Positions 1 through 25,242 are shown, numbered from the stretch's first letter. The stretch is DNA of 48,364 nt from Polyangia bacterium (GCA_044228505.1 JBGAUT010000014.1:78725-127088), one strand, 5' to 3'. Translations and numbers: made by a program. Notes: generated from the sequence alone by a model not told the origin.

Positions 1-1800
1 GTCATCGGACAGTCGGCGTTCATCACGCACGCCACACAAGCGGTCTTGGTCGGATCCGCATTGTCCACGTAGCACTTGGGAGTCGGGTTCTTACATTCCA
101 TATCCGTTGCGCATGGAACACAGAGGTTTTTGACCGGCATACCCATCACGGACTGACAGATCTTATTGCTACCTTTGCAGTCTGCGTTCATAAGACACGC
201 GGTGCAGACGTTGAGGTGCTTATCTACCGCGTCCAAGTAGCACACCGGAGCGCTCATGTTCGTACATTCGGCATTTGTCAAGCATGCTGTGCAAACATTC
301 TTCTTGGCGTCCGCAGCATCGACATAACACGTCGAACTCGGTGCTTTGCAGTGCACGCCCGACGTGCATTCCACGCAGAAGTTCTTGGTGTCGTCCATGC
401 CCGGATCTTTGAAGCAAGCGGGCTTCGGAGCGGAGCAGTTTACGTCGACCAAGCAAGTGAGACACATGTTCTTGCTGGGATCCATGTTGTCGACCTTGCA
501 GGTAGGGGTCATCACCGGGCAATCGAGCGTCCCCACGCAAGGCACACACTGATTCTTGGTCGTGTCGGCAGCGTTGAGGTAGCAAGCAGGTTTGCCCGCA
601 ACCCCCGTACAGTCCGTACTGCTCTGGCAAGCGATGCACTGGTTGTTTCCAGGATCGCAGATCGGCTTGCCCATGACGTTCATGCAGTCGGCCCCAGTCA
701 AGCACGGGACGCACTTGTTCTTGCTCGCATCCGTCATGTCCTTGAGACACTTCGGGCTCGCCATCGGACAGTCCGCATCAGCGAGACACGGCACGCACTT
801 GTTCTTGGTGGTATCGCAGACCGGACGGCTCGGGAGCGTCTTGCAATCGTTCGAACTCAAGCACTCGACACAAGCATTGAGCGTCGAATCCGGATCGGTC
901 TTGCACTGCGCCGGGCTCATGTTCTTACAGTCAGCAGCGATCAAACACGGCACGCACTTGTTGATGGCGGTGTCGCAGGTCGTCTTGCCGGGAGTGGTGC
1001 AGTGACTGCTCTGGGTGCACTCAACACACATGTTCTTGCTGCTGTCCGTTGGATCGACTTTGCAGCCAGGTGCCGCTGGTGACAGACAGTCCATGTTGGT
1101 CAAGCAGGTCGCGCACTTCCCAGTGGCGGTATCGCACGCAGGACGACCTGGGAAGGCCGAGCAGAAGCTGTTGTCGGTACACTCCACGCAGCGATTCTGA
1201 CCAGGACTGCAGGCACGAGTGGTCGTGCCCGCCCCCAGAATGCGCACACAGTCCGATCCGCTGAGACACTGCACACAGCCACTGTTCGACTTGCACAACG
1301 ACTTGGTCTGACTGGCGGGATCGCACGCGACCTCGTTGTTGCACATGCACTGGCCACCACCGCAGCGATCCGCCGTGCTGTTGCTGCAGGCGTTGGAGCA
1401 GCCACCGCAGTGGTTAAAGTCGGTCTGTGGATCAATACACATCCTTAGCATCGGACAGCAGCTTCCTTTTCCGCTGTCTGCACCGGTTCCACACTGCTCA
1501 AAGCCATCGTTGCCCGGCGTCATGTTGACGTTGCCACTCACGCACTTGTTGTCGAGGCTGTCGCACAGCTCCGGGGCACCATCGCGAGCCTGCATACTAG
1601 GCGGCGGAATCGCCGGCCAAACGTTGCGATTGTTGTCATCGCAGTCGCTGCAATACAGCAAGTTGCTATTAAACGCGGCAGGGTTATCGGTGTCGGTGCA
1701 GCCCGCGCAGGACATGTACTTGTCTCCATCGAGATCGCTCTCGTTAGGAGGAAGAGCCCCGCTACAGTCATCATCGAAGCCGTTGCAGATCTCCGCAACC
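1..1800 (-). repeat. Array of ~38-40-codon coding repeats (Myxococcus cysteine-rich repeat units) in the 3' part of the giant lipoprotein gene
   Basis: Periodic C-x2-C-x4-(D/E/N)C...K-N-x-C-V-x-C in the translation. The boundaries are approximate. Confidence 0.6.
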
Positions 1801-3980
1801 GGATCGGTCTGATCCTTACAGACCAAATAGCGATCTTTGGAAGAAAATCCGGGGACGCTCAGTGCATAGAAGGGATTGTCCTTGCCACGGACACAACCGA
1901 CCACCGTGCCAGCCTTGCAACGAGTGCCGTTCACCGTCACACCGCACGCTCGACCCTTTTCCGCCAAGAAGCTGCCTGCGGGGTCGTCCATGCTGCCGTT
2001 GCAATCATCATCCACCGGATTTGTGGCATCGCAGGTCTGTGGCTTCGGCTGATTGGCACCAAAGCAGCGAGCCGTAAAGAGCGCGCTGTTGTCCTGAGCC
2101 GGGCACCCCGCAAACGCCTTGGGATCGACAGTGGACGAAGGCAGAGTCGAAGTACAGACACAGCGGCCACTGAAAAATCCACTGATGTCTTTCTGTCCAC
2201 ACAGTCCGACCGTGGAGTCCGCACACGAGGTCGTTCGCTTCGACAGATCGGTACCGGTCTGCACCAAGCGACTCCCCAGCGAGTCGGGGTTTAGCTCATC
2301 GATCAGACCATCGCAGTCATCATCTTTGCCGTTACACATCTCCACCGCGAACGGATGGACATCGAAGTTTGCATCATCGCAGTCACTTGCGGAGTCGTAG
2401 CCGTCCTTGTCACGATCGAAGCTACAGACATCCATCATTCCGTCGCAGTTGTGATCCTTGCCATCGCAAGCGATCGGCGCACCAGGAAAGCTGCTCGGGT
2501 CCGCATCATTGCAGTCAAATGGCTTGCCAGCCACCAGACATCCGGCGGTGTTCTTGGGGAATCCGTCTCCATCCGCATCACACGCCACGGTAGGACAGCC
2601 ACTGCGCGCCATCGTGGGATCCTCACAACTCGTGTTCTGCACCCCACCCGTCGCATCGGTGTTTCGACACAGTCCACGCATTGCGGAAAGAACATTGAAT
2701 CCCTTGGACGCTGCATCGAGCATTCCGTACTTGGTCGCACTCCCAAGCGTGGTCGCAGAGCCCGGAAACACACCGCGATCGTTGTCATCACAATCGAGCG
2801 GACGACCGGACATTTTGTAGTTGGTGGTCGGGCAAGTCTGTCCCGCCAGTACCTCGGAACGCTGAAAACCATCGCCATCGAGATCGCAAGGAACACAGCC
2901 CGCGGATGGACGACCATCGCAGGCCCAGTCCTTGATCACACCATCTGCTGGATCGCAGAGCTTCTGCGCATTGGGATGCACCCGGGAATCGGTATCATCG
3001 CAGTCACGCAGCTTCACATCGGGATTGTTGGGCGAGTAGCCGTCACAGTCTTCATCGGTAAAGCAATCAACATTCAATCCGGTGCAGTCAAAGTCGAAGG
3101 TGGTATCGCAGCGCTTCGGCTGACACAGAGTCTGATCCGCACGCTTATTGTGATTGGTTTTGCAACTGGTGACATCAGTGCACTCACAACAGTTTCGGGG
3201 GCGCGGGTTGCCGTGATAGCGATTCTTATCGGTGTCATCGCAGTCACTCCCTTCAGGATCACCGTCAGAATCTTTGTCTTCACAAGCCCGTGGCTCGCCC
3301 GCACATGTGACATCAAACAGAGCCAGTGGCGGCAGGCTGGTGGCACTCGGGGAGTGAGCAGGACGCAGCTTGACGTTGCAAGATGGACTTGCAAGGGGAT
3401 GGATGTCAAAGCTGCGGAGTCGCACTGGCTCCAAGTCTCCCGGGGGCGGATCGCCGTCGACACAGTCTAAGACCTCTGGCTGATCCTGATACAGAGACGC
3501 GGCCTCCGCATTCTGAGCGGTCCACGACAGAGCATCCGGAAAGTGATCCCCATCGACATCGAACTCGGAGGCAACCGGGAGCAGTTTGGCTTCGACTTCC
3601 TGGTAGGCACCGATCTCTAAGATTCGTGCAAAGAAGTACTGCGGCTCGGGATTCCCTCTCTGGGGCAGCGATTCCACATTGGGTACATTGGCCGCCAAAA
3701 CTTGCAGCAAAAAGCGACCATGCTGCGAAAAGGGAAGTGCGACCCTGAGTGGGTCGTTTGCCAGCAATCGCTTGTCGCTCACATTCTGGATGCCTGACAG
3801 GAACACCACCTTGCGGGTAGCACGGTCCTGAATCTTGATGACGTAGCTCTGAAGGCGAACTCCATCCGGAGCACGGATCACCACCATCACACCATCTGGT
3901 ACACTACACGATGCCAATAGCAGCACGAGTAGTGCCCCAAGGAAGTGGCAAAGTCCCTTCTGATTGCGTTGGCAGTTCAT
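1..3980 (-). CDS. Giant Cys-rich repeat lipoprotein, 5'-partial in window (>1320 aa). N-terminal lipoprotein signal MNCQRNQKGLCHFLGALLVLLLASC, then MopE-like putative metal-binding motifs (C-D-D-x-D...C-D/N-G-x-D-x-D-C-D-G), then more than 15 tandem Myxococcus cysteine-rich repeats (C-x2-C-x4-DC-x7-C-x5-C, ~38-40 aa period).
   Basis: My own translation of the reverse complement from the ATG at 3978-3980. A strong SD (GGGGGG) lies 4 nt upstream. The reading frame stays open to position 1. The repeat families were recognised by motif only. The plus-strand ORF-track entries at 216-3470 are frame shadows of this gene. Confidence 0.75.
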   Translation of the reverse strand, partial: MNCQRNQKGLCHFLGALLVLLLASCSVPDGVMVVIRAPDGVRLQSYVIKIQDRATRKVVFLSGIQNVSDKRLLANDPLRVALPFSQHGRFLLQVLAANVPNVESLPQRGNPEPQYFFARILEIGAYQEVEAKLLPVASEFDVDGDHFPDALSWTAQNAEAASLYQDQPEVLDCVDGDPPPGDLEPVRLRSFDIHPLASPSCNVKLRPAHSPSATSLPPLALFDVTCAGEPRACEDKDSDGDPEGSDCDDTDKNRYHGNPRPRNCCECTDVTSCKTNHNKRADQTLCQPKRCDTTFDFDCTGLNVDCFTDEDCDGYSPNNPDVKLRDCDDTDSRVHPNAQKLCDPADGVIKDWACDGRPSAGCVPCDLDGDGFQRSEVLAGQTCPTTNYKMSGRPLDCDDNDRGVFPGSATTLGSATKYGMLDAASKGFNVLSAMRGLCRNTDATGGVQNTSCEDPTMARSGCPTVACDADGDGFPKNTAGCLVAGKPFDCNDADPSSFPGAPIACDGKDHNCDGMMDVCSFDRDKDGYDSASDCDDANFDVHPFAVEMCNGKDDDCDGLIDELNPDSLGSRLVQTGTDLSKRTTSCADSTVGLCGQKDISGFFSGRCVCTSTLPSSTVDPKAFAGCPAQDNSALFTARCFGANQPKPQTCDATNPVDDDCNGSMDDPAGSFLAEKGRACGVTVNGTRCKAGTVVGCVRGKDNPFYALSVPGFSSKDRYLVCKDQTDPVAEICNGFDDDCSGALPPNESDLDGDKYMSCAGCTDTDNPAAFNSNLLYCSDCDDNNRNVWPAIPPPSMQARDGAPELCDSLDNKCVSGNVNMTPGNDGFEQCGTGADSGKGSCCPMLRMCIDPQTDFNHCGGCSNACSNSTADRCGGGQCMCNNEVACDPASQTKSLCKSNSGCVQCLSGSDCVRILGAGTTTRACSPGQNRCVECTDNSFCSAFPGRPACDTATGKCATCLTNMDCLSPAAPGCKVDPTDSSKNMCVECTQSSHCTTPGKTTCDTAINKCVPCLIAADCKNMSPAQCKTDPDSTLNACVECLSSNDCKTLPSRPVCDTTKNKCVPCLADADCPMASPKCLKDMTDASKNKCVPCLTGADCMNVMGKPICDPGNNQCIACQSSTDCTGVAGKPACYLNAADTTKNQCVPCVGTLDCPVMTPTCKVDNMDPSKNMCLTCLVDVNCSAPKPACFKDPGMDDTKNFCVECTSGVHCKAPSSTCYVDAADAKKNVCTACLTNAECTNMSAPVCYLDAVDKHLNVCTACLMNADCKGSNKICQSVMGMPVKNLCVPCATDMECKNPTPKCYVDNADPTKTACVACVMNADCPM

Positions 3981-4060
3981 CGTTCCCCCCTACGTAAGCG
4001 AAGCAAGTTCGATCGAAGCACTACGAAGCGAATGCAAAAAAATCAAAGTCACGCTCAGTC

Positions 4061-4987
4061 CTACTTGGATGACGATCGGCGTGGCACCTTCCCAACGGCC
4101 AATAGCGGGTTGGTGGTTCGCTCAGCTGACGGTAACGCAACACTACGGAGCCTACGCAGCTCGGTCAGCAGAATCTGCTGCTCGACCTGGGCCAGACTAC
4201 TGTCTCGCGAGCGCTGCGCCCGCATCTCGATAAGCTCGGCCAGCAGCGGTGCCAGCGCCGTGGCCAGCCCACGCTCCAGCGTCTCTGCACTAACCGGCTT
4301 TTCGATTCCTTTGACCGGTAGCAACGTGGCACTGATGCCTCTGGCCAGCGGGACCAGGGTTGCCTCAATCCGCGATAACATGGTCTCTGTCTGGTTGACC
4401 CTTACGACCAGTCCTTGAATCTGCGTCATCAAACGATCGACGTCGTGCGCCAGACCTGAGACATTGCGAACGGTCTGAGACTGAGACTTCGAGATCTCCT
4501 GAGACAGCCGCTCGTGGCCTTCCGCTAGCAACTGGTGCAGCTCGCCGAGCTTACGAGCGACTGACGCGACATCGACACTATCAACCACAGCATCCGTTCC
4601 CACCACAGCCGCAGCAGATACGGTAGCGACCGTCGGCTCGGGTGGCACAGAGTCGCTGACAGTCGCCGCAGTCCTCACATCGGGAAGCGGAATCCCGACC
4701 ACCGGAGCCAAAGCCGCAGAGTCCGTTCCTCCGGACTCCTTCACCAACAGTGCTGACGTGTCTGGCTGCGGAGTCGCTGCATCATCTGCCTCCGCAACTG
4801 GGGGCCGATCGCTGGGCGACAGATCCGTCCCCACCAAGATGCGCTGACTCCGGGATGAGCTGGCCACCCGACGCGTCGCAGCGGTCCGACTGGTAGTCGC
4901 TCGCCGACGAGTGGTGACCACCGCCGCAGAATCTACGGGTGGCTCGGTCGGTGCTACGGCTGGTGTCTTACGAACCCGGGTGGCCAT
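4061..4987 (-). CDS. Hypothetical protein (~308 aa) with an Ala/Thr/Arg/Pro-rich disordered N-terminus and a C-terminal coiled-coil-like domain. It is the last gene of the vgrG cargo module and a possible effector, immunity or accessory protein.
   Basis: The ORF-track entry 4061..5059 starts from a GTG. An internal ATG at 4985-4987 has a textbook SD (TAGGAGTAACG-ATG), so I prefer that as the start. The N-terminal half is low complexity. I recognise no domain. Confidence 0.5.
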   Translation of the reverse strand: MATRVRKTPAVAPTEPPVDSAAVVTTRRRATTSRTAATRRVASSSRSQRILVGTDLSPSDRPPVAEADDAATPQPDTSALLVKESGGTDSAALAPVVGIPLPDVRTAATVSDSVPPEPTVATVSAAAVVGTDAVVDSVDVASVARKLGELHQLLAEGHERLSQEISKSQSQTVRNVSGLAHDVDRLMTQIQGLVVRVNQTETMLSRIEATLVPLARGISATLLPVKGIEKPVSAETLERGLATALAPLLAELIEMRAQRSRDSSLAQVEQQILLTELRRLRSVALPSAERTTNPLLAVGKVPRRSSSK

Positions 4988-4995
4988 CGTTACTC

Positions 4996-5382
4996 CTAAG
5001 GGGTCATCACCGTGGGAACACCAGGCGGCAGAATCTCGATCACCCCCGCCCACAGACACATCAGCTTTGCAGAGTTATTCAGAATCGGCATATTTCCAAG
5101 CAGCACGGTCGGAGCCCCGACAATCCATGGGGCCGGTGTGTTCGGAATGCAAGGCATCGGAGTCAGTACGCCGAGCGCTGCTGCCGTGGCCGCTGCCACC
5201 ATCGGATTGGCCATCGACTGACACATGCCAAACGGCAGGATGTTCACCATGGGCTTGTTGTCCATGATGTTGGCGACCGGCACTGGAGACATCACGCGGT
5301 TCACCGGCAGCACCATCAGTGAGCCAGGAGCCAGCCCAAACGAACACTTTAGCATTGCGCCCATGCAAACTGCGTTTGGCAT
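4996..5382 (-). CDS. DUF4280 / PAAR-like spike-sharpening protein (128 aa)
   Basis: Motif VCMGAMLKCSFGLAPGSLMVLPVNRVM...PMVNILPFGMC is typical of the DUF4280 (PAAR_like) family. The start codon overlaps the stop of the upstream MORN gene (TAATG). It sits two genes downstream of vgrG. Confidence 0.7.
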   Translation of the reverse strand: MPNAVCMGAMLKCSFGLAPGSLMVLPVNRVMSPVPVANIMDNKPMVNILPFGMCQSMANPMVAAATAAALGVLTPMPCIPNTPAPWIVGAPTVLLGNMPILNNSAKLMCLWAGVIEILPPGVPTVMTP

Positions 5383-6593
5383 TACTTGCCTCTCGGTGTA
5401 GAGGTTTCAGTCATCGGCAAAGTACCAATATTCGGAGGCTCCAGAATCAATCCCTTGCGAGGGGGCGGCGGGGGCGGCGGAGCCTTCTTCCCCGGCTTGA
5501 CCGTCAACGCGGGAGCTTTCTCCGCTGCCGCAACTGGAGGTACCTTTTCCGCTGCGGCTGCCGCTAGCTCTGGCTTGGCAATCGGTGACTCTGGAACCTG
5601 TGGTACCTCGGGAGCTTGAGGAAGCTCCGGAGTCGCAGGAATCTCAGGTGCCGTCGGCAGCTCGGGCGCACTCGGCAGCTCCGGTGCAGCGGGCATCTGT
5701 GCACCACTTAGGAGTCCGGTTACCGCCGGAGCCGCAGCCGCTACGATCTTCTTGCGCGCCACATCCATGAGTCCGCGCAGCGCCGACTGCTTGGCTGCAT
5801 CAGCCGCTTGCGCCTCCACGGAAGGCGTTGCGGGAACCGGAGCAGTCTGCAGGGGTCGCCCTTTTTCATCAAACTGTTCCGGAGTCGGTACGAGCGCCCC
5901 GTGCTCATAGCGAGCCCGCCTCTGAAGTTTACCGCTCGGATAGTAGACCAAAGATTCGCCGTGGAGCTTGCCCGCCAGATACTGATTGGTTTCGCGCAGG
6001 CGTCCATCGGGAAGAAACTCCTCGACGAGTCCCTGAAGCAGTCCCTCGACATAGGGCTCGCGGCGGACCACCACCCCGTGCGGTCCAAAATAGACCGCCT
6101 CCCCATGCCGTTTGTCGTTCACATAATGAGCAGACAGAATCGGTCCACCGTCAGGACCGTAGATGACACCGACTCCGTGCTTTTTGCCCTTCACGTAGTG
6201 CTGCTGGCTCACCATTTGACCGTTTTCATAGGTCACCATGTCGCCATGTAGCTCTCCGCTCACATACGACGCCAGCAGCTCGGACCGACCCTGTTCATCA
6301 AAGCGGCGCAGCAGTCCATTCATCTTTCCGGCCTTGAAGTGAACGCGCTGCAAGACCTTGCCACTAGGAAAGAACTCGACAGATTCACCGTCGAGCTGGT
6401 CATTTTTATACTGCGACTTCTGATGTAATTTGCCGCTCTGAAAAAATGAAAACTCACCGTCCATTTTGCCGTCGTGCAAAGGCCCACGCATGCTGACGTT
6501 GCCATCCGCATCGTGATCGACATGCTCGGCCTTGCCATCGATCGGCCCCTGCGCAGACTCTCCTTCTGGACGATGCTTTGACTGTTCACTCAT
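5382..6593 (-). CDS. MORN-repeat (YwqK-like, MORN_2) protein with a C-terminal Pro/Ala-rich linker (PELP repeats, PPPPPPP). Translationally coupled to vgrG, so a candidate T6SS cargo, adaptor or immunity protein.
   Basis: Contains at least 8 repeats of the form G-x-x-x-x-Y-x-x-G-x-x-x-x-x-x-x-Y/F-x-x-G-x-x-H-G. The start ATG (6591-6593) lies 1 nt from the vgrG stop. The stop overlaps the start of the DUF4280 gene. Confidence 0.6.
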   Translation of the reverse strand: MSEQSKHRPEGESAQGPIDGKAEHVDHDADGNVSMRGPLHDGKMDGEFSFFQSGKLHQKSQYKNDQLDGESVEFFPSGKVLQRVHFKAGKMNGLLRRFDEQGRSELLASYVSGELHGDMVTYENGQMVSQQHYVKGKKHGVGVIYGPDGGPILSAHYVNDKRHGEAVYFGPHGVVVRREPYVEGLLQGLVEEFLPDGRLRETNQYLAGKLHGESLVYYPSGKLQRRARYEHGALVPTPEQFDEKGRPLQTAPVPATPSVEAQAADAAKQSALRGLMDVARKKIVAAAAPAVTGLLSGAQMPAAPELPSAPELPTAPEIPATPELPQAPEVPQVPESPIAKPELAAAAAEKVPPVAAAEKAPALTVKPGKKAPPPPPPPRKGLILEPPNIGTLPMTETSTPRGK

Positions 6594-6594
6594 A

Positions 6595-8631
6595 TTAGTT
6601 CAGCTTCACCATGCCGCCCTTGATCGCAGCCATCGCTCCACCTTCGAGCTTCGCCATCGCGGCAGCCTTGACGTCGATGTTCACGCCCTCCAGCTTCATG
6701 CCTACCCCAGCCTTGATGTCGAGATTCACGGCCGCTTCCTGCTTCATGTTGGCCCCGGCTTTGAACTTCATATCCGCACCGGACTTCACATCCACAGCAG
6801 CAGAGGCCTCTGCCTTGATTCCCTTCTTCGAAACAATCTTAATGTCGCCATCGACGTTGATCGTCAGGTTCCCTTTGACGGTCAGGATGTAGTCCTTGTC
6901 CACCGTGTGGCTGAACTTGGCCTTGTTTTTGTGCGTCTCATCCTTGTCGACTTCGACCGTCCGCTTGCCCTTGACAGAGTGCTTCTCATCACCCTTATCG
7001 ACCTTGACCGTACGATCTCCCTTTTTGACCGTGAGCATCTCATCACCCTCGGTCACTTCGACCTCACGGTTCTTCTTCACCACGATCTTGTCGTTGTTAT
7101 CGATCTTGGCGCTGCGATCGTTTTTGATCTCGGTCTTGCAGTCGTTGTCGATCTTGGCGGTGCGGTCGTGTTTGACCTCGATGTTCATGTCCTTTTGGGC
7201 ATGGACGTAGATCTCTTCGGAGTCCTTCTTGTCTTCGAGACGAATCTCGTTGAAACCACCACCACCCTTGCTGGTGCGGCTCTTGGTCGTGCTCTTGGTC
7301 TGGTTGTCAGGAAGCGGATAGGGGACAGTCTGCTCAGCGTTGTAGACAGCCCCGGTGATGAGTGGTCGATCAGGATTCCCATCAATGAAGGTGATCACCA
7401 CCTCCTGTCCGATTCGCGGCAGAAAGAACGTGCCATAGCCCTTCCCTGCCCAGTGCTGAGTCACCCGAACCCAGCACGAGCTATTTTCGTCCTTCTTGCC
7501 TTTGCGATCCCATGGGAACTGGACTTTGACGCGACCGTATTTGTCGGTCCACATCTCTTCGCCCGACTTTCCCACCACCACTGCGGTCTGGCTTCCCAAC
7601 GCCATTTGCCGTCGGGTACGTCGCGGAGGACGGAACACCACGGTCGCGGGCAATGCCTCGATCGAGTTGCCGTAGTTGCCCCTGTCTCCGATGTGACTGA
7701 TGCTGCGAATCACATACTCTTGATTGAGATCGCTGCGATCATGCTTGGTCAGCTTGAACTTGCCACCAGCGGTGAATCCGCGACAGTTGCCGCTCGCTCG
7801 CAGGACTTTCTGCGCGTGCTCCATCGATTCAATGCGCAGCTTGGCGAGCTTCTCGCCATCGTTCTTTTTGGCGTAGTTACCCGGATGGTCGTAGACCACC
7901 AGCGCTGGACTTCCACCACCGGTCTTGACGAACAGATCGGTCGAAGGAATTTCAAAGTTATAGTCCGTCAGCGCGTATCCGGTAGTAACCAAAGACTCTT
8001 CGAACGTGCAGTCTCGCAGGCAGTTCGGGGAATCATCGAGTCCCATTCGCACATCAGTCGACCCAGTACACTTGGCGTAGCCATCACTGTCATCGGCCAA
8101 CACCATCATATGTTTACCGTCGCTGTGCTCGAAATAGTAGAAGATTCCCTCGTCTTCCATCAGCCGACTGACGAAGTCAAAGCTCGACTCCTGATACTGC
8201 ACGCAGTATTCGCGCTTGGCATACGTTCCCTTCAGACTCTTTTTGAAATCCTTCAGACCAAGATCCGAAAACACCTCTTCGATGATCTCGGGCACGCTCT
8301 TGTTCTGGAAGATTCGGTTGTCGGCGTGAAGCGTCAATAGCCACAACCATGGCCGCAGTTCCGCCACGTAAACGGTGTGCTTGGGATCGTATCCTGATTC
8401 AACGAAACGAGTCACGATTCCGCAGATGTGACGCTTCGACTTATCCGGCAGCACGATCGTAATCGTGACCGCCTTTCCCATCAGCTTCTTAAAGTCGAGC
8501 TTTCGATCCTTGCAGAGAAACTGAAGCGTATAAAGGAACGGTAGGGAGATCTCCTCTTGTCCCTGAAACGACTCCAGAACCAAGGCGTCCGCTGCAGGAG
8601 TCGATGCGCTTAGGAAGTCATGGTCGCTCAC
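6595..8631 (-). CDS. vgrG: Type VI secretion system spike protein VgrG (TssI), 678 aa, with gp27-like and gp5-like domains and no C-terminal effector extension.
   Basis: Conserved VgrG blocks are present: ...RVTQHWAGKGYGTFFLPRIGQEVVITFIDGNPDRPLITGAVYN..., and the KVDKGD/TVEVDKDE beta-helix repeats at the C-terminus. It lies in a T6SS core cluster. Confidence 0.93.
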   Translation of the reverse strand: MSDHDFLSASTPAADALVLESFQGQEEISLPFLYTLQFLCKDRKLDFKKLMGKAVTITIVLPDKSKRHICGIVTRFVESGYDPKHTVYVAELRPWLWLLTLHADNRIFQNKSVPEIIEEVFSDLGLKDFKKSLKGTYAKREYCVQYQESSFDFVSRLMEDEGIFYYFEHSDGKHMMVLADDSDGYAKCTGSTDVRMGLDDSPNCLRDCTFEESLVTTGYALTDYNFEIPSTDLFVKTGGGSPALVVYDHPGNYAKKNDGEKLAKLRIESMEHAQKVLRASGNCRGFTAGGKFKLTKHDRSDLNQEYVIRSISHIGDRGNYGNSIEALPATVVFRPPRRTRRQMALGSQTAVVVGKSGEEMWTDKYGRVKVQFPWDRKGKKDENSSCWVRVTQHWAGKGYGTFFLPRIGQEVVITFIDGNPDRPLITGAVYNAEQTVPYPLPDNQTKSTTKSRTSKGGGGFNEIRLEDKKDSEEIYVHAQKDMNIEVKHDRTAKIDNDCKTEIKNDRSAKIDNNDKIVVKKNREVEVTEGDEMLTVKKGDRTVKVDKGDEKHSVKGKRTVEVDKDETHKNKAKFSHTVDKDYILTVKGNLTINVDGDIKIVSKKGIKAEASAAVDVKSGADMKFKAGANMKQEAAVNLDIKAGVGMKLEGVNIDVKAAAMAKLEGGAMAAIKGGMVKLN

Positions 8632-9716
8632 GGTGCTGGCCTCAGTGGTTCATCGCTGTAACGAGCAACGGCACCCAGCGCCACCCTGGGAACACCACGC
8701 AACTTGGCTCCATATGACAAAAAGGAAGTGAGCCCCAAGACTGGCTGCTCCGCCCCTGGCTTCGGGTCCGCTTCTGGATAACCCAGCCGAGCACGCGGAA
8801 TCTCCTCGGCCTTGATCAGTAGCGAGACAAAGATGTCGTACTCAGGACCAACGTAGAACCGCGCCAGTTGAATGAGCGCGCTCAGTCCTTGATGTCCAGG
8901 TAGAAAATCCAGGTAGCGCACCCACGGCAGTGGCCCGATTTCAAGCTCGATTCCTGCTTGCTGGTCCCAGATCATCGAGCCGATCATCGCTTGCCCGCCC
9001 AGCATCTGGTTCTGACCGCTGAGCCCAAGCTTGGTCCACTGCTCTTCCTCGATCGGACGCATCGCCCCCCGAAGCTGATGACAGACAATCTTGACTTGGA
9101 AGTGATCGCTTAGCAGCGTCTCAAGTCCGGCGGCATCACGAGGCTGCTTGGTCAGTAGTCCCGCGTAGCGCAGCAAGGCTCGGTCAGGAACCTTTAGACG
9201 CTCCTGTAGACCTTCTGTGAGCATTCCCATCAGGCCATACAGAAAGCGTGAAAAGTGGTGCTCCTCAGGAGAGTTCCACTCTGTTCCTAGTTTACAGCTC
9301 TGCCGAACGCGAAACAGAAGCGACACCAGTCGATGATCGAAGATGTCGAGAAAATCCCGCAGCGCAAAGTCTCGCGCCGCATTCCGTTCTAGCACCCAAT
9401 CGGTCATCGGGTGTGGCAGAGGGCCTTGCGCTCCGCCGAGCCCGAGCATGGCTACGGTAACGATCGGAGTGCGCGCTTCCCCCACAGGCTGCTCAATCGC
9501 AACGACATCACTTGGTGGAAAGGCCAACGAAAAGGAAGAACGGAAGCGCAGTGGCTCTGCTTCCGGATTGCCCCCTGATCCAACCGAATCAGCATCCGGA
9601 GCGAGCATCTCTAGGAGTCGCACCAACTGATAGAAGTTGAAGCGATACGGCTCCGCATACAGCTCTTCGATTACAGGAGGTTGCGAGCGCCCGCCAGCGG
9701 TGGCCATTTCTTCCAC
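8628..9716 (-). CDS. tssG: T6SS baseplate subunit TssG (362 aa)
   Basis: N-terminal YRFNFYQLVRLLE motif is characteristic of TssG. It sits between tssF and vgrG. A 46-nt overlap with tssF suggests the true start may be a few codons downstream. Confidence 0.85.
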   Translation of the reverse strand: MEEMATAGGRSQPPVIEELYAEPYRFNFYQLVRLLEMLAPDADSVGSGGNPEAEPLRFRSSFSLAFPPSDVVAIEQPVGEARTPIVTVAMLGLGGAQGPLPHPMTDWVLERNAARDFALRDFLDIFDHRLVSLLFRVRQSCKLGTEWNSPEEHHFSRFLYGLMGMLTEGLQERLKVPDRALLRYAGLLTKQPRDAAGLETLLSDHFQVKIVCHQLRGAMRPIEEEQWTKLGLSGQNQMLGGQAMIGSMIWDQQAGIELEIGPLPWVRYLDFLPGHQGLSALIQLARFYVGPEYDIFVSLLIKAEEIPRARLGYPEADPKPGAEQPVLGLTSFLSYGAKLRGVPRVALGAVARYSDEPLRPAP

Positions 9717-11479
9717 GCCTCCTGTCGCTGACGGCTACGAACCACCAGCGTCGTAAAAGAGTTTACCGCCGTATACAGACCGAAGAATCGACTGAGCACG
9801 GCCGACATCATCAGCGCACTGTGACCAACGTACATCGCCTCATCGACAACGATCTGGACCTCTTGACCATGCACAAAGCCACGCCATGCATCACGCCCGG
9901 CTTGCAGCGTCTTGGGATGACAGCGCAGCTCGGTGATTCCTAAGATCTGATTCTCCGTTGCGGTGGTCGGACTCATCCGATACAGACGCAGGATCTCACG
10001 CAACGAATCGCGACTCTCTCTGCCACCAATTAGCGACAAGTGATTGAGCGATAGGTGGGACACCAGCTGCCACAGCGCCGCGCCTCCCAAGGGAGGAGTA
10101 ATCGGTTCGGTCGGTTTCGACAGACAGGTGACCGCTTTGACCGGAGCGGAATCTTCCATCTGGAGTCGCGCCCGGGCAGGCATTTGCGCCGCCAAGTCAC
10201 GATTGGTACACAGGGTATGGGCGAACACGGTCTGCGTCGCTGGTTGCGTCGGTTTGAACCGCAGATCGACAAACGACAGATAGGTGTCACAGCCGGTCAT
10301 GTCAGCGCGCCCGGTGGGCCGCCGCTGGGCATAGTAGAACGCCTGATGCTGATCACCACTTGCTGGGTGATTGAAGGAAAAGAACGGAGCGATGGTCTGG
10401 CTGGAGTTGGGATCGGCACTCATCGAGACTTTGTCGATCGAGTGGATCTCACAGGTCTTCTCCTCCCGTTTATCGGCTACGAGCTGATACTCCGGAAGTC
10501 GATGGGTCAGCCGAATCGGCTCTGCGGTCTTGCCAAACAGATTGATGATCGGAGCGCAACCGAGCATGAACGTATTTCGATTCACGGCCACGGATCGAGA
10601 CGGCAGCTCGGAGAGCAGAATCAGGATATCGGCGGTCTTCCTGGCTAGCTGAATACGCGGCAGATCGATGTCGAAGAATAGAAATTTTTGCGGAAATACA
10701 AAGTACTCCTGAAGGAGTCGATAGGCCGGATGCGCATACTCAGGAGAGGGGAGCAGCGCATCCTCGATATCGAGTCCCACCGGACGGAGCGCCTGCGGAC
10801 CCATGTACTGGACCTCGGGCCGACCATCGGGCAAAAGTGCCACCCCGACCGTTGATGCAATCAGCAGATCATAGATCGAAGCGGCGATCTCAGCAGAGGC
10901 GTTGACAAACAGCCGCAGGCTTCGCAGATCCAGCTCTCCGAAGCTCTCTGCTTGGCACTCGAGCTTGATGCGTAGCATCGCGATGCCTTTGGGATAGGCA
11001 TCCAAATACGGATAACGATCGGTCGCTTCGATCTGAGCAGAGACGATCGACACCGGCCACAAGGTGGTGTCTGCTCCGGTTCGGAATCGACACAGGGCTC
11101 CGGTATCGGTCTGTGCAAAGAGCCGCGCACCCTTTTGTACCGTGAACCCGCCCAGTGGTAGACCTTGTTCGGAATCGACATCGAAATGTGCGATCGACAT
11201 CGACGGTACGTTCTGCAGTAGATGCGGATACAGACATTCCAGAAGAGAGGTTGTGATCAGCGGAAAATCGGCATCCAGTCGCTGCTGAAGCCGCGCTGTC
11301 AAAAATGCAAAGCTCTCGATCAGTCGCTCAACATGTGGATCAGCACAGGCTTCAGCGGACAGATCGAGTCGGGACGCAATCTTGGGATACTTGCGTGCAA
11401 ACTCTGCGCCCATTCCACGCAGGTACTGTAGCTCGCGCTGATAGGCACGCAGCAGCTCGTCTTTGGCTTCACTACTCAT
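9671..11479 (-). CDS. tssF: T6SS baseplate subunit TssF (ImpG/VasA family), 602 aa
   Basis: N-terminus LLRAYQRELQYLRGMGAEFARKYPKIASRL and FDVDLPRI are typical of TssF. It has an 8-nt overlap with tssE. Confidence 0.9.
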   Translation of the reverse strand: MSSEAKDELLRAYQRELQYLRGMGAEFARKYPKIASRLDLSAEACADPHVERLIESFAFLTARLQQRLDADFPLITTSLLECLYPHLLQNVPSMSIAHFDVDSEQGLPLGGFTVQKGARLFAQTDTGALCRFRTGADTTLWPVSIVSAQIEATDRYPYLDAYPKGIAMLRIKLECQAESFGELDLRSLRLFVNASAEIAASIYDLLIASTVGVALLPDGRPEVQYMGPQALRPVGLDIEDALLPSPEYAHPAYRLLQEYFVFPQKFLFFDIDLPRIQLARKTADILILLSELPSRSVAVNRNTFMLGCAPIINLFGKTAEPIRLTHRLPEYQLVADKREEKTCEIHSIDKVSMSADPNSSQTIAPFFSFNHPASGDQHQAFYYAQRRPTGRADMTGCDTYLSFVDLRFKPTQPATQTVFAHTLCTNRDLAAQMPARARLQMEDSAPVKAVTCLSKPTEPITPPLGGAALWQLVSHLSLNHLSLIGGRESRDSLREILRLYRMSPTTATENQILGITELRCHPKTLQAGRDAWRGFVHGQEVQIVVDEAMYVGHSALMMSAVLSRFFGLYTAVNSFTTLVVRSRQRQEAWKKWPPLAGARNLL

Positions 11480-11948
11480 GGCTCTTGTGCTCCAACAGAC
11501 GAGGGCTGGCCATCACGCGAAACGACACCGGCTCACGCAGCTCCTCCATCACCAAGGTTCCGGTGATGTTGAGAATGAGTCGTGACTCGGTCTGAATAAA
11601 CTGCGCCACCGTGACCCGAGGATTCGCAAGCCGAGGCTCAAATGTCTCAATCGTGCGCGTGAGCAGTGAGATCAAGTGACGCATCGACTGGGGGTCTAAT
11701 GGGTTTACCCACAGCAGATCGGTCGCCCCAAAATCAATGACAGAGCGCTCCCGCTCGAGCAACTCATGGGAAGGCAGTCCGGATCGAGTGTTGAGAAGTC
11801 GCGAGATTTCCTCACGAACGGAAGTCACCAGATCGGAATAGGAAAGCGTGCGCAGCGGTACCGGTTCGCGCGCCTGCTCTGGCTTTCGATCAGAGAGTCG
11901 CTCAAACAGTGGAACCGCAGCAACATGCTGTTTAGATGGAAGCGGCAT
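11472..11948 (-). CDS. tssE: T6SS baseplate subunit TssE (gp25-like), 158 aa
   Basis: Has an N-terminal LFERL-type motif and is gp25-like in length. It sits between hcp and tssF. Confidence 0.85.
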   Translation of the reverse strand: MPLPSKQHVAAVPLFERLSDRKPEQAREPVPLRTLSYSDLVTSVREEISRLLNTRSGLPSHELLERERSVIDFGATDLLWVNPLDPQSMRHLISLLTRTIETFEPRLANPRVTVAQFIQTESRLILNITGTLVMEELREPVSFRVMASPRLLEHKSHE

Positions 11949-11960
11949 CTTGGGCTACTA

Positions 11961-12449
11961 CTAAGCGCCCTTGTTTTCTTCCAGAGACCAGTTGGAAGAA
12001 CTCTTGCCCTTGTTGCCACCCGGCTGCTTCTGAAGCTGCTGGCCGTAGTCCCAGGTGATCTTCTTATAGCTAAAGGTCACCGTTTCGATCGGCTGATCGC
12101 CACCGCCACCGACCGACACGCTGGTGATGATGCAGCTATCGAAGGTGTAGGTCAGGTACTCGAGCGGCTTGCCGGCCGAGTCGGCCTTCCAAACATGAAC
12201 CTTCATCGCCTTGATGTCTTCGCCCGCGCAGCACTTGAGGTTCAGCGTGGGCGAGGCCAGATCGGCCTGCTTGGTCACCGTGAAGTCCTGATGGACGCAG
12301 CGGCCCGATGCACGGCTGGTGTTCGATGGGCCCGAGGTGAGCGGCATCGACACGCCGTGGTTAAAGGACAGAAGCTCGATCATGTCCTTGCCCTGGGCAG
12401 AGGTCGACTCTCCCTTGATTCCGTCAATTTCCCAGAAGATGTTCTGCAT
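11961..12449 (-). CDS. hcp: Hcp (TssD) inner tube protein, ~162 aa
   Basis: MQNIFWEIDGIKGESTSAQGKDMIELLSFNHGVSMP is the canonical Hcp1 N-terminus. I trimmed the ORF-track entry (to 12497) to the internal ATG at 12447-12449, which has an SD (AAGGGGA) 8 nt upstream. Confidence 0.93.
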   Translation of the reverse strand: MQNIFWEIDGIKGESTSAQGKDMIELLSFNHGVSMPLTSGPSNTSRASGRCVHQDFTVTKQADLASPTLNLKCCAGEDIKAMKVHVWKADSAGKPLEYLTYTFDSCIITSVSVGGGGDQPIETVTFSYKKITWDYGQQLQKQPGGNKGKSSSNWSLEENKGA

Positions 12450-12509
12450 TTCGAATTCCCCTTGAGCCTCTGTCCCAGTGGAACAGAGGCGTCTCATAGC
12501 ATCCCGTTA

Positions 12510-13976
12510 TCAACCAGCGGCAGGCGGTGGAAGCTCTGCCACCAAGCGAATCGAAGCGGTCAGCTCATTGAGCTGAAAGTGCGGCTTGAGGAATGCCACC
12601 GCACGGTACACACCCGGCTTACCCGGAACATCGAACACGTCGATCCGAGCCTCGCGCAGCGGATACTTGGCCTTGATCTCCTGACCTGCATCGTCACGAA
12701 GCAGGATGTAGTTTGCGATCCAGTTGTTCAGATAGTTGGCCACATTTTCGCGAGTCAAGAAGCTGCCGATCTTGTCGCGCATGATCGCTTTGAGATAGTG
12801 CGCAAACCGCGACGAGGCGAGCAAGTACGGAAGCTGCGAAGACAGCGACGCGTTGGCATTGGCCTGCGGCGTGTTATAGGTCTTCGGCTTGTTGGTAGTC
12901 TGGCCTCCGAAGAACGCGGCGTAGTCCGTATCCTTACAGTGACACAGCGAGATGAAGCCGAGGTCCGACAGCTCCTTCTCACGGCGATCGGTGATCGCGA
13001 TCTCGGTCGGACACTTGAGAGCGATGTCTCCTTCATCGGTCTTGAAGGTATGCGCGGGCAGTCCCTGAACGATTCCGCCGCCTTCCACACCTCGGATCGC
13101 GGCCGTCCACTTGTGAAGCGCAAATGCGTTGGTGATGCGCTGTCCCATCACGTACGCGGCATTGCTCCACAGGTACTTGTTGTGGTCCTTGCCGTCGGTG
13201 TCTTCCTCGAAACGGAACTCCTCGACCGGCACCGTCTTGGCACCGTAGGGAAGTCGCCCGAGCACGCGGGGCAGGGCCAGCGCAACGTAGCGAGAATCCT
13301 CAGACTCACGGAACGAACGCCAGGTGATAAGCTCCGAGCTCTCAAACAGCTTGGACAGATCACGCGGGTTGCCAAGCTCGGTGAAGCTCTCCATATCGAA
13401 GAGACGAGGACTGGCAGCGCTGATGAACGGAGCGTGTGCAGCGGCCGCAACATTGGAGATCTTGCCAAGCAGCGAGATATCCTGCGGATGCCGACCAAAC
13501 TCGTAGTCACCGACGAGGCATCCATAGGGCGCGCCACCGAAGGTACCAAACTCTTCTTCATAGATCTTCTTGAACAGATTGCTCTGATCGAACTCTGAGG
13601 CCTTCTCAAGATCATTGAGAAGTTCCTTCTTGGTCGCGTGCATCACCCGCAGCTTGAGCGAGGAGCTGGTCTCGGTGTTCATCACCAAGTAGTTCAGACC
13701 ACGCCACGAGCCTTCCAGTTTCTGGAATCGCTCATCGTGCATGATGGCGTTGACCTGCTGCGTCAACACTTCATCAATGTGCGCGATCTTTTCGAGCACT
13801 AGCTTGGCTAGATCAGTAGTCGGCGAAACCGCCGTCGGATCCACCTGATTCACGAACTCGCCGATCAGCGTACGAGAGTGCGCGATCTGCAGCTCATCGC
13901 GGGCCATCTTGCCATCGCGGATCAGGTTGTCGAGGACGTCCGTCGTCGTCTTGGTAGTTGTTTCATTTTCAGCCAC
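12510..13976 (-). CDS. tssC: T6SS contractile sheath large subunit TssC (VipB/ImpC), 488 aa
   Basis: Full-length VipB-like sequence (GTFGGAPYGCLVGDYEFG, LPRVLGRLPYG, KPHFQLNEL). Confidence 0.95.
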   Translation of the reverse strand: MAENETTTKTTTDVLDNLIRDGKMARDELQIAHSRTLIGEFVNQVDPTAVSPTTDLAKLVLEKIAHIDEVLTQQVNAIMHDERFQKLEGSWRGLNYLVMNTETSSSLKLRVMHATKKELLNDLEKASEFDQSNLFKKIYEEEFGTFGGAPYGCLVGDYEFGRHPQDISLLGKISNVAAAAHAPFISAASPRLFDMESFTELGNPRDLSKLFESSELITWRSFRESEDSRYVALALPRVLGRLPYGAKTVPVEEFRFEEDTDGKDHNKYLWSNAAYVMGQRITNAFALHKWTAAIRGVEGGGIVQGLPAHTFKTDEGDIALKCPTEIAITDRREKELSDLGFISLCHCKDTDYAAFFGGQTTNKPKTYNTPQANANASLSSQLPYLLASSRFAHYLKAIMRDKIGSFLTRENVANYLNNWIANYILLRDDAGQEIKAKYPLREARIDVFDVPGKPGVYRAVAFLKPHFQLNELTASIRLVAELPPPAAG

Positions 13977-13988
13977 GGCAACCCCTCC

Positions 13989-14495
13989 TTAGCTCGAAGC
14001 CACGCTCTTGGCAGCAAGGGCTTTGACGGCCCCAAACTTGTCTTTGTCAGAAAGCAGCTTCTGAAGCTGCCCCTGCAAATCCTCGTTACCATCCAGCTTG
14101 GTCAGTAGGTCGACCAGCCGCTGCCGCATTTCCAGCATCTCCCGCAGTTCTTTCGTAGCCTTCACGATTGCGGTCGGATGAAAGTCATCCAGGTGACGGA
14201 ACGTTAGCTCCACCCCAAACGACGACCCGTCCTTCTTGATCTGGTTTGGTACGCTGTACTTTAACTTTGGTGCAATGTTGCCAAGCACCTGGTTGAAGTT
14301 GTCGCGATCGATCTGAACGAACTTGCGATCCTTCAACCTGGGCAGAGCATCCTGCTGACCTGCAAGGTCCGCAAGAATGCCAACGACGAAGGGAAGTTCC
14401 TTCATCTGGATGGCGCCGCCGATTTCCACATCGTAGGTGATCTGGACCCGTGGCGGCCTTACACGGTCGAGTTTGTGCTGGGTACTCTCAGACAT
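13989..14495 (-). CDS. tssB: T6SS contractile sheath small subunit TssB (VipA/ImpB), 168 aa
   Basis: PPRVQITYDVEIGGAIQMKELPFVVGILADL is the VipA signature. It lies immediately upstream of tssC. Confidence 0.95.
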   Translation of the reverse strand: MSESTQHKLDRVRPPRVQITYDVEIGGAIQMKELPFVVGILADLAGQQDALPRLKDRKFVQIDRDNFNQVLGNIAPKLKYSVPNQIKKDGSSFGVELTFRHLDDFHPTAIVKATKELREMLEMRQRLVDLLTKLDGNEDLQGQLQKLLSDKDKFGAVKALAAKSVASS

Positions 14496-14590
14496 CGTTC
14501 CCTCACGTCAGCCTGTGGGGCGTAAAGTCCCCGGTTTCATCCACAGACGCCAGGGCCAATCCTTGGCATCTCACGAGAATTCCTTCTCAT

Positions 14591-15715: not shown

Positions 15716-15721
15716 GATTCC

Positions 15722-19828: not shown

Positions 19829-19852
19829 GTGGCTCTTCCCATTGGCTCCGCG

Positions 19853-22386: not shown

Positions 22387-22453
22387 GAAGACAGGTGTCT
22401 GTAATTCTCGATGCTATCACTACCTAACGGTTCAACACAGTGCGATGTAAAGG

Positions 22454-23362: not shown

Positions 23363-23415
23363 GGCTCACCCAAGTCGACTTGGTGCACGCAACATCAGAG
23401 AATGACAAGTCGAAC

Positions 23416-24756: not shown

Positions 24757-24774
24757 TCCGATTCCTACATCCCG

Positions 24775-25242
24775 TTACTGGCTCAAGTTCACGCTCTGCT
24801 GGGCAAAGCCAATCTTGAGTGCCTGGTTGGTGTCGAAGGTGTAGCGATGTGAGCCGGGAGTCTGATAGTTCACAAACAGAATCCCTTGGCTGACGCTGCT
24901 CGATACCTTGCGGTTAATCTCTGGAACCTGTTGGCCCGGAATAAACTCGAAGTAGGTCTCCTCCAGATCCCGACGATGGTCCCGCAGAAGCTGCTCTCGC
25001 TGACCGAACCACTGCTTCGCTGTCATATCGAGCAGCTTCTTGAACAACGTGGGATTTTTGGGAAGCACCACTGAGATCAGTACTGGAGAGTTGTTGTTCG
25101 CGTCGGTGGCGATGGTCATCTGAATCCGCCATGGATGAGTCGCACAGCCAAACAGCACAGCACAGAGCAGCACGAGTACAAGACTCGGGACCGTCGTCCG
25201 TCCTGCGCTGGCCCGATAGACTCCATGACGAACCAAGTGCAA
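24775..25242 (-). CDS. tssJ: T6SS outer-membrane lipoprotein TssJ (155 aa)
   Basis: Lipobox LFGC-A. The size and the block IATDANNNSPVLISVVLPKNPTLFKKL resemble SciN/TssJ. It lies directly upstream of tssK. Confidence 0.7.
   Translation of the reverse strand: MHLVRHGVYRASAGRTTVPSLVLVLLCAVLFGCATHPWRIQMTIATDANNNSPVLISVVLPKNPTLFKKLLDMTAKQWFGQREQLLRDHRRDLEETYFEFIPGQQVPEINRKVSSSVSQGILFVNYQTPGSHRYTFDTNQALKIGFAQQSVNLSQ

Follow-up and report, generated by a model that had tools for sequence, protein, structure and literature searches.

A vgrG–MORN–DUF4280 gene module, related to the TseF and TeoL loci and with lineage-specific additions, in a myxobacterial type VI secretion cluster

What does the spike cassette of a type VI secretion system (T6SS) deliver when none of its genes encodes a recognisable toxin? 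The question is raised by a stretch of 48,364 nucleotides from a Polyangia bacterium (GCA_044228505.1 JBGAUT010000014.1:78725-127088; hereafter the window, in whose positions, on the minus strand, coordinates are given unless a locus number precedes them), in which vgrG is followed by genes for a 403-aa MORN-repeat protein, a 128-aa PAAR-like DUF4280 protein and a 308-aa protein. An earlier note on this DNA had seen no known toxin, adaptor (DUF4123, DUF1795, DUF2169) or immunity fold here, and our family scans bear this out: searches against Pfam, NCBIfam, PHROGs, PADLOC and PDB sequences place none of the module's genes in a family of toxins, adaptors or immunity proteins, and neither the MORN nor the 308-aa protein matches DUF4123/Tap, DUF1795/Eag or DUF2169 in Pfam at E <= 0.1. 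We find that the vgrG, MORN and DUF4280 genes are same-order homologues of PA2373-PA2374-PA2375 and of Cupriavidus vgrG1-teoL-DUF4280. With a little better than even confidence, we read the locus as a myxobacterial version of the VgrG3-TseF-PA2375 spike module, in which the MORN protein would be a non-toxic bridging effector with a lineage-specific tail and partners; a bridging role of this kind would explain why the locus holds neither a toxin nor an immunity gene.

The three genes following vgrG are real and not chance open reading frames (ORFs), as homologues lie in conserved synteny on many independent contigs, and the earlier domain calls for VgrG, MORN and DUF4280 were correct, with profile matches to TIGR03361, MORN_2 and DUF4280. 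vgrG (6595-8631) encodes a VgrG3-type spike protein (TssI) of 678 aa (TIGR03361, 1.4e-184; Phage_GPD, Phage_base_V and Gp5_trimer_C also match) and overlaps the stop of tssG (8628-9716) by 4 nt. The ATG of the MORN gene (5382-6593) lies 1 nt after the vgrG stop, and its TAA has one base in common with the ATG of the DUF4280 gene (4996-5382), in the sequence TAATG. The description of all these junctions as overlapping or 1 nt apart holds for those two and fails at the third, which is tight only: the DUF4280 TAG is separated by an 8-nt spacer from the ATG of the 308-aa gene (4061-4987, stop codon 4061-4063), with an AGGAG overlapping the DUF4280 stop. The ATG at 4987 is backed by the MATRVRK N-terminus kept in all homologues; a longer, mechanically called ORF from a GTG at 5059 was rejected as too long given that conserved start. 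The best explanation of window 4061-8631 is that it forms the distal end of an H3-T6SS-like operon.

The DUF4280 protein had been taken as a marker of the spike tip, and this is upheld by its PF14107 match (6.8e-33; 114 bits against a gathering cut-off of 26.3) together with its conserved cysteines, of which five are invariant (C6, C13, C54, C78 and C109); the published criterion for DUF4280 PAAR-like proteins is four cysteines (PMC5349215). It also resembles IglG (NF041248, 1.8e-18, below cut-off). Identity is 90-91% among the myxobacterial loci, and this DUF4280 subtype is unusually conserved, at 65-80% identity, from Myxococcales metagenome-assembled genomes (MAGs) to Oxalobacteraceae, Firmicutes and the eCIS (extracellular contractile injection system) loci of Methanoperedens. 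In three Methanoperedens MAG loci (L032, L059 and L065) the archaeal protein is 66-69% identical to the bacterial T6SS one, and L059 shows eCIS genes (sheath, WHD-AAA ATPase); this tip is unusually conserved across domains of life and across two kinds of contractile injection system.

It is through the tip protein that the locus can be tied to a characterised effector. Using tblastn of the DUF4280 protein against annotated plasmid records, we recovered a Pseudomonas aeruginosa record with an H3-T6SS locus (NZ_CP137515.1) in which tssF, tssG, tssH and further genes are followed by vgrG, a gene for a 178-aa 'toxin-antitoxin system YwqK family antitoxin' and a convergent DUF4280 gene. This is the locus PA2373 (vgrG3)-PA2374 (tseF)-PA2375. 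TseF, the product of PA2374, has 178 aa and three MORN motifs, adjoins vgrG3, binds VgrG3 and is secreted by the H3-T6SS; it binds the Pseudomonas quinolone signal (PQS) on outer-membrane vesicles as well as the receptors FptA and OprF, and most of its homologues are encoded together with a VgrG (Lin et al. 2017, Nat Commun, PMC5379069). PA2375 is the DUF4280 protein of the H3-T6SS (PMC7376260). The window and P. aeruginosa proteins are 42% (VgrG, full length), 61% (DUF4280) and 27-32% (MORN) identical, and BLASTP aligns the MORN protein with TseF (E 6e-16) collinearly up to the FDxxGRPL end of the domain. TepB (PA14_33970) was considered as a MORN protein and rejected, being an M91 peptidase on the other side of vgrG3. 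Two observations on the records may be added. NZ_CP137515.1 is labelled a plasmid and carries the chromosomal H3-T6SS region, with the TseF orthologue at L095 9404-9940; and the RefSeq name 'YwqK family antitoxin' is misleading for vgrG-linked MORN proteins; neither NCBIfam nor Pfam has a model for the TseF/TeoL family.

The second characterised member, TeoL (Reut_A1725) of Cupriavidus necator/pinatubonensis JMP134, is secreted by T6SS1, is encoded downstream of vgrG1 and recruits vesicles by binding lipopolysaccharide (LPS) as well as its receptors, CubA and CstR (Li et al. 2021, ISME J, PMC8776902); the paper describing it contains no mention of MORN. A Cupriavidus locus in our set (L093) has the order vgrG-MORN_2 (238 aa)-DUF4280-…-tssJ-like-tssKLM (the Azospirillum and Cupriavidus plasmid records are unannotated, and their genes were mapped in this analysis). 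The published teoL reverse primer is an exact match to L093 7959-7984, ending at the stop codon, and the first 18 nt of the forward primer, which is printed with one C fewer in a C-run, match at the ATG (L093 7268). As the locus tags Reut_A1725 (teoL) and Reut_A1726 (vgrG1) are also adjacent, TeoL is the 238-aa MORN_2 protein encoded between vgrG and DUF4280. TseF and TeoL have both been reported to be T6SS-secreted, non-toxic and able to recruit outer-membrane vesicles (PMC5379069, PMC8776902). An adjoining DUF4280 gene, which these papers do not give as a mark of such effectors, is counted as one in our analysis.

The anatomy of the window MORN protein is concordant with membership of this family. 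Its beta-hairpin repeat domain (aa 22-241, 5871-6530; Pfam MORN_2, PF07661, 4.2e-21), corresponding to the TseF/TeoL-family core, is modelled by AlphaFold2 as a beta-hairpin sheet with a predicted local distance difference test (pLDDT) score >90, and the structure search proposed in the earlier note gave MORN1 and junctophilin as the best Foldseek matches of this model (E 4e-9 to 1e-6). There follows a predicted helix (aa 259-287, 5733-5819, …QSALRGLMDVARKK…, block pLDDT mostly 82-87). Short MORN homologues end in an amphipathic helix a few residues past an FDxxG(K/R) motif, and residues ~269-281 of the window helix align with that terminal helix (…ILDRLQKLVRGS and variants), as also with …RRLERWVRG of the TeoL orthologue and …MARWRWWWIRL of TseF; the short homologues stop at this point, whereas in the window protein the helix is internal, with ~115-125 further residues after it. 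The sequence contains no signal peptide. Orthologues were taken from the retrieved loci, because a full-length homologue search was swamped by the low-complexity Pro-rich tail (6 matches only) and a domain-only search missed true orthologues. A family profile built only from 47 non-myxobacterial vgrG-linked MORN proteins gave 204 bits for the window-identical protein, 197-214 for full-length myxobacterial MORN proteins, 186 for an Azospirillum protein, 178 for the TeoL orthologue (L093) and 119 for TseF; MORN_2 proteins from other or unknown contexts scored 52-150, with one outlier, P0034, of unknown context, at 200. On profile score, conserved position and collinear architecture we file the N-terminal 290 residues as a putative member of the TseF/TeoL family, apparently closer to TeoL than to TseF. 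The idea that either cargo protein could be a novel effector class does not survive for the MORN protein, which synteny and profile score place with the vgrG-linked MORN proteins, TseF and TeoL being the characterised ones; it does for the 308-aa protein, still a legitimate unknown.

How far the gene order reaches was seen in a scan of one genome per species with a DUF4280 alignment, which yielded 80 loci whose tip proteins are 59-100% identical. Seventy-four of these lie outside the Myxococcales-type group; vgrG is directly upstream of DUF4280 in 50, and in 48 of the 50 a MORN_2 gene (160-290 aa) stands between them, its stop usually overlapping the DUF4280 start. Among the hosts are Oxalobacteraceae (Duganella, Massilia, Janthinobacterium, Rugamonas), Comamonadaceae, Gemmatimonadota, Nitrospirales and Chlorobiota. 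When the core proteins of the window were mapped on to these relatives, they gave the order tssBC-hcp-tssEFG-(~3.5 kb)-vgrG-MORN-DUF4280-(0 or ~4 kb)-TssJ-like-tssK-L-M-A. As tssK, L, M and A usually follow the triad, the MORN gene is embedded in the core operon, and the triad is a conserved, core-operon-embedded unit of one T6SS clade across several phyla. Variable toxins after DUF4280 in other lineages were considered and rejected, the ~4-kb inserts of Duganella- and Limnohabitans-type loci encoding an SBP_bac_3 protein and two SDF-family symporter-like proteins; many of the long ORF calls in these high-GC loci are spurious and in the wrong frame. The solute-binding and symporter-like genes sit between DUF4280 and the tssJ-like gene (L019 10661-11569; L021 10602-14259), and together with the TPR and Peripla_BP_6 genes inside the window cluster they may indicate that nutrient sensing or uptake is coupled to this T6SS clade.

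More distant pairings of the two proteins are found in Firmicutes. All four Firmicutes loci with this DUF4280 subtype encode a nearby 600-670-aa MORN (PF02493) protein with a basic/hydrophobic N-terminus (L048 5048-6931, L064 10390-12195, L073 4370-6175, L083 1488-3509). In Paenibacillus (L064) the MORN gene is directly downstream of DUF4280, and genes typical of an eCIS (phage sheath, Baseplate_J or WHD-AAA ATPase) are seen in three of the four loci (L048, L064, L083); a MORN protein is absent from all of the ~20 other loci without vgrG.

This regularity admits a different explanation, which we regard as possible and rather unlikely: that the MORN protein is a structural tip accessory, a chaperone or adaptor that keeps DUF4280 competent and/or mounts it on VgrG, so that its appearance outside the cell is a by-product of firing and the 308-aa protein is the real cargo. 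Such a part might well be encoded always between vgrG and DUF4280, with a stop usually overlapping the DUF4280 start, in the core operon and not in a variable island; it would also suit the MORN-repeat proteins that accompany DUF4280 in all four Firmicutes eCIS loci, the binding of TseF to VgrG3 (PMC5379069) and the reported failure to obtain soluble preparations of purified DUF4280 proteins, PA2375 among them (PMC5014421). However, TseF and TeoL occur in supernatants T6SS-dependently and have extracellular activities and receptors (PMC5379069, PMC8776902). Furthermore, the MORN gene is absent from two vgrG-DUF4280 loci, L041 and L087, from L094 (Caballeronia) and from ~20 eCIS loci, which argues that the tip is not universally MORN-dependent, and the MORN protein diverges much faster than DUF4280 (~28% against 61-80% identity).

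Turning to what distinguishes the myxobacterial loci, we found one constant order, (tssG)-vgrG-MORN(extended)-DUF4280-308aa-Cys-rich lipoprotein(-Sel1), in all carrying contigs that reach far enough (L001-L017 and L096-L108, obtained by exact look-ups and by one scan each of genomes and metagenomes). The run from the extended MORN gene to the lipoprotein gene has no exceptions in ~25 contigs, among them a subclade at 24-30% identity, and the MORN end peptide and the Arg-rich motif of the 308-aa protein each occur once per locus, in the same loci wherever a contig covers both genes. The neighbourhood comparison proposed in the earlier note, which had asked whether the cassette varies beside a constant vgrG, thus gave the opposite of a variable cargo slot, the cassette being constant wherever it is present; nor were the three genes ever found together outside a T6SS locus, the finding that the note had said would tell against it. 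The MORN extension, the 308-aa protein and the downstream lipoprotein are lineage-specific features (uncultured Myxococcales-type). In L099 (3785-6103) a phage-type integrase gene lies immediately upstream of tssG, with no tssF called upstream, and the tssG-vgrG-MORN-DUF4280-308aa-MopE block there may be an orphan or rearranged island.

The 308-aa protein has a three-part plan. Its Arg-rich N-terminus (aa 1-50, 4838-4987, MATRVRK…TTRRRATTSRTAATRRVASSSRSQRI, net charge +9) has most residues invariant across 14 homologues, and remote homologues, whose overall identity is 24-30%, keep the pattern; the second part, an acidic linker rich in Pro and Ala (aa 51-138, 4574-4837, AlphaFold2 pLDDT <50), is variable, not alignable and of differing length among homologues; and a helical C-domain (aa 139-290) ends in a basic tail (aa 291-308; together 4064-4573). 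AlphaFold2 models aa 1-136 as disordered, followed by an 83-residue helix (aa 140-222, pLDDT >90) and helices at 234-259 and 264-284; the C-domain is amphipathic, with a hydrophobic periodicity of 3.5-3.6 residues, and is conserved in both subclades. Searches against Pfam, NCBIfam, PHROGs, PADLOC and PDB sequences gave no match that passed the threshold, and the fold searches gave generic coiled coils only and no fold match; the housekeeping homology that the earlier note had named as its refutation was likewise absent from profile, PDB-sequence and fold searches. The family is small: 26 matches among 90%-identity clusters (5.8 billion representatives, word-indexed search) and 15 among 1.84 billion representatives in a full profile search, the named ones all being 'Myxococcales bacterium' MAGs or metagenomes, with a second subclade at 24-30% identity that has the same three parts.

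RIX is an arginine-rich N-terminal T6SS delivery domain of Vibrionaceae effectors and secreted adaptors, and the RIX proteins include secreted tethers that are not toxic (Kanarek et al. 2023, PMC10435454). The likeness of the 308-aa protein to these is, we suggest, an analogy of mechanism drawn from composition and position only. The Arg-rich segment was found on no other C-terminal domain and so does not appear to be a general delivery tag like MIX or RIX. A comparison of domain charge and pI for an acidic partner of this segment was uninformative.

The gene for the Cys-rich lipoprotein (3-3980, running off the window; lipobox LLLASC; PF11617, 1.2e-26) starts 80 nt past the 308-aa gene on the same strand. 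The protein, of 1339 aa in L001, is rich in Cys repeats with MopE-type putative metal-binding motifs, and its gene is downstream of the 308-aa gene in every contig reaching that far, the distant lineage included. In longer contigs it is followed by a gene for a cytoplasmic Sel1-repeat protein without a signal peptide, which at least two loci (L009 and L099) lack. The lipoprotein carries many CxxC-type repeats besides the MopE-type motifs, and before both it has a conserved N-terminal domain of ~200 aa without Cys repeats (…VIRAPDGVRLQSYVIKIQDRATRKVVFLSG…), for which we found no family and which is kept even in the distant subclade (L098 1066-2880).

Taken together, these genes could suggest that the 308-aa protein is a new spike-delivered toxin with the lipoprotein or the Sel1 protein as its immunity protein: it is encoded directly after a PAAR-like gene, is lineage-restricted and without known family or fold, has an Arg-rich N-terminus that recalls RIX in composition and position, and is always followed by the same two genes. 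We think this improbable. Unlike toxin/immunity cassettes the locus shows no polymorphism, the same protein and neighbours recurring in every locus; nearly half of the protein is predicted to be disordered and the rest to be an amphipathic coiled coil that lacks both a catalytic fold and transmembrane segments; and, of the would-be immunity proteins, Sel1 lacks a signal peptide and is not present at every locus, while a Cys-rich lipoprotein of such length would be an unusual one.

The tail of the MORN protein (aa 288-403, disordered and Pro-rich in the AlphaFold2 model) comprises a spacer (aa 288-367, 5493-5732, pLDDT ~50 or below) and a terminal peptide (aa 368-403, 5385-5492, GKKAPPPPPPPRKGLILEPPNIGTLP…PRGK). 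The spacer holds six xAPE(L/I/V/S)P hexapeptide repeats (aa 302-337), a composition that is not conserved, being Gly/Ala-rich in the distant lineage L096/L099. The extension ends in the peptide PPPPPPPRKGLILEPPNIGTLP, near-invariant among close orthologues and kept in the distant lineage as PPPPPPxRQ(I/V)(L/V/M)(V/L)LEPPxLGSLP; at each locus it is found in the MORN protein only.

Such a tail, on a fold that matches the eukaryotic membrane-tethering proteins MORN1 and junctophilin, could also be that of an anti-eukaryotic effector, the sheet binding host phosphoinositide membranes and PPPPPPPR (PxxPxR-type) engaging modules of the SH3, profilin or EVH1 type; the near-invariance of the poly-Pro peptide might speak for this, and myxobacteria encounter amoebae and nematodes in soil. 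This we hold to be very improbable, as the family members studied so far have vesicles and receptors of bacteria as their targets, any poly-Pro run plus Arg fits an SH3 consensus and so carries little weight, the best-conserved part, LEPPxxGxLP, is no known host-module ligand, and we found no experimental or contextual link to eukaryotes. That the MORN protein is instead a YwqK-type immunity protein (antitoxin), as its MORN_2 match and the NCBI name of its P. aeruginosa orthologue would have it, is scarcely credible given the absence of a toxin domain from the neighbouring genes scanned in the window and in sampled related loci, the fixed position between vgrG and the PAAR-like gene, and the fact that the orthologues TseF and TeoL are secreted effectors (PMC5379069, PMC8776902); here the earlier suggestion of an adaptor or a membrane-targeting effector in place of an antitoxin has held up.

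We therefore return to the non-toxic bridging effector and consider how it might work. By analogy with the published accounts of TseF and TeoL, the MORN protein would ride the VgrG·DUF4280 spike and be released outside the cell, where its sheet and the following amphipathic helix would bind a membrane or a vesicle-surface ligand; it could then dock the vesicle, or its cargo, on to a surface receptor of the producer. From anatomy and co-occurrence only, the flexible ~80-aa spacer and the poly-Pro/LEPPxxGxLP end might be a tethered docking peptide, for which the candidate partners are the helical domain of the 308-aa protein, the lipoprotein N-domain, and the TPR or Sel1 proteins. The Arg-rich first 50 residues of the 308-aa protein could be a loading or docking segment, as in RIX, and its C-domain, an amphipathic coiled coil, might be another cargo or tether carried by the spike, with the Cys-rich surface lipoprotein as a candidate receptor. 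More speculatively, and with confidence well short of even, we suggest that this lineage has turned the one-protein bridge of TseF and TeoL into a multi-part secreted tether consisting of MORN head, arm and docking peptide, 308-aa co-cargo and lipoprotein receptor, and that MORN-repeat proteins are perhaps dedicated partners of DUF4280 tips both in T6SS and in Firmicutes eCIS.

Several considerations weigh against the bridging-effector reading. Secretion, VgrG binding and vesicle binding by the MORN protein in this organism are inferred from TseF and TeoL; and the ligands of these two differ (PQS and LPS), so that the ligand in this host cannot be predicted. At 119 bits, TseF itself falls within the range of unrelated MORN_2 proteins, MORN repeats align easily with each other and so inflate scores, and the link between the window protein and TseF comes mainly from synteny and from the better-scoring TeoL-type members. 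The strict gene order and the translational coupling to DUF4280 suit a structural partner of the spike no less than they do a free effector. A search for the Arg-rich N-terminus on other C-terminal domains gave assembly fragments only. Finally, what is proposed for the tail, for the 308-aa protein and for the lipoprotein derives from their co-occurrence in what may be a single lineage, and is confounded with phylogeny.

Upstream, in the same operon block (8628-25242, Pfam matches), lies a T6SS core in the order TssJ-like lipoprotein, tssK, tssL, TPR, Peripla_BP_6, tssM, tssA, tssB, tssC, hcp, tssE, tssF, tssG, ahead of vgrG. The first gene (24775-25242) encodes a lipoprotein of 155 aa (lipobox LFGC), for which neither Pfam nor NCBIfam gave a significant match; a homologue precedes tssK in ~40 related loci, and it is probably a divergent TssJ. 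The TPR and Peripla_BP_6 genes (19853-22386, the TPR protein at 21298-22386) stand between tssL and tssM. A scan of the large ORFs of the 48-kb window found no ClpV/TssH gene; in the short-triad relatives, ~3.5 kb separates tssG from vgrG, and the P. aeruginosa record annotates tssH there. Relative to these the window cluster is circularly permuted, with tssJ-like-K-L-M-A first and vgrG last. Promoter, terminator and tandem-repeat scans of 3700-6800 gave nothing above shuffle expectation. Just upstream of the T6SS cluster and on the same strand, where the window reaches its highest GC content (60-68%) and its strongest skew, a gene at 26563-29904 encodes a 1113-aa Ala/Lys-rich, predicted helical protein with weak apolipoprotein-like matches and a long low-complexity C-terminal region of GGAGDA(K/R)-type and DGVKAPEGKGG repeats. 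A 212-aa ORF at 33726-34364, whose match to Pkinase is confined to the N-terminal half of the domain (profile positions 3-122 of 263), may be a truncated or mis-called Ser/Thr kinase gene.

The triad itself, and the MORN effector family in two species, are already known. New, to our knowledge, are the explicit tie of TseF/TeoL-type proteins to the DUF4280 tip as a core-embedded, cross-phylum triad, the identification of TeoL as a MORN_2 protein, and the myxobacterial elaboration by tail, 308-aa family and lipoprotein; none of the papers searched mentions both DUF4280 and MORN. A toxin-less vgrG cassette with a MORN gene might thus be taken as a module of the TseF/TeoL type, by which public goods or vesicles are acquired, and not as an unknown toxin or a YwqK antitoxin, and the fixed triad, in at least five phyla, ties a little-studied tip protein to these effectors. 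Myxobacteria depend strongly on outer-membrane vesicles and outer-membrane exchange. A vesicle-recruiting T6SS effector with extra parts in these bacteria, if true, would be a testable link between T6SS and vesicle biology, and the 308-aa family, as a compact new protein with a conserved Arg-rich N-terminus, is the part most worth experiment.

Considering known systems, YwqK, which is the immunity protein of the Bacillus subtilis YwqJ toxin, shares its Pfam repeat family, from which the automatic name of TseF-like proteins comes, with the window MORN protein, the window having no cognate toxin and a different genomic setting. RIX and the 308-aa protein both place a conserved Arg-rich N-terminal segment of ~50-55 residues on a T6SS-linked protein; however, RIX is confined to Vibrionaceae and Moritellaceae and heads many C-terminal domains, whereas the myxobacterial segment heads one, in Myxococcales-type MAGs. 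Francisella IglG and P. aeruginosa PA2375 are like the window DUF4280 protein in having PF14107 with conserved cysteines and a gene adjoining vgrG, although the window protein lacks the N-terminal helix extension that IglG has. TseF, similarly, is encoded directly downstream of vgrG3 with the DUF4280 gene PA2375 adjoining; it is the shorter protein, at 178 aa against 403, has not so many repeats and ends in a helix rich in Trp, PA2375 runs convergently to tseF where the window DUF4280 gene is co-directional with the MORN gene, and the TseF ligand PQS is specific to Pseudomonas and close relatives. TeoL ends at the helix where the window protein adds the spacer and the poly-Pro/LEPP end peptide; Cupriavidus lacks the 308-aa protein and lipoprotein that follow in the window; and LPS binding, the CubA and CstR receptors and Fur control are features reported for TeoL and not for the window protein. 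In common, each is a MORN_2 protein encoded between a VgrG3-type vgrG and DUF4280 in the same T6SS clade, with a MORN sheet, an FDxxG motif and a short amphipathic helix, and with neither a signal peptide nor an adjacent immunity gene.

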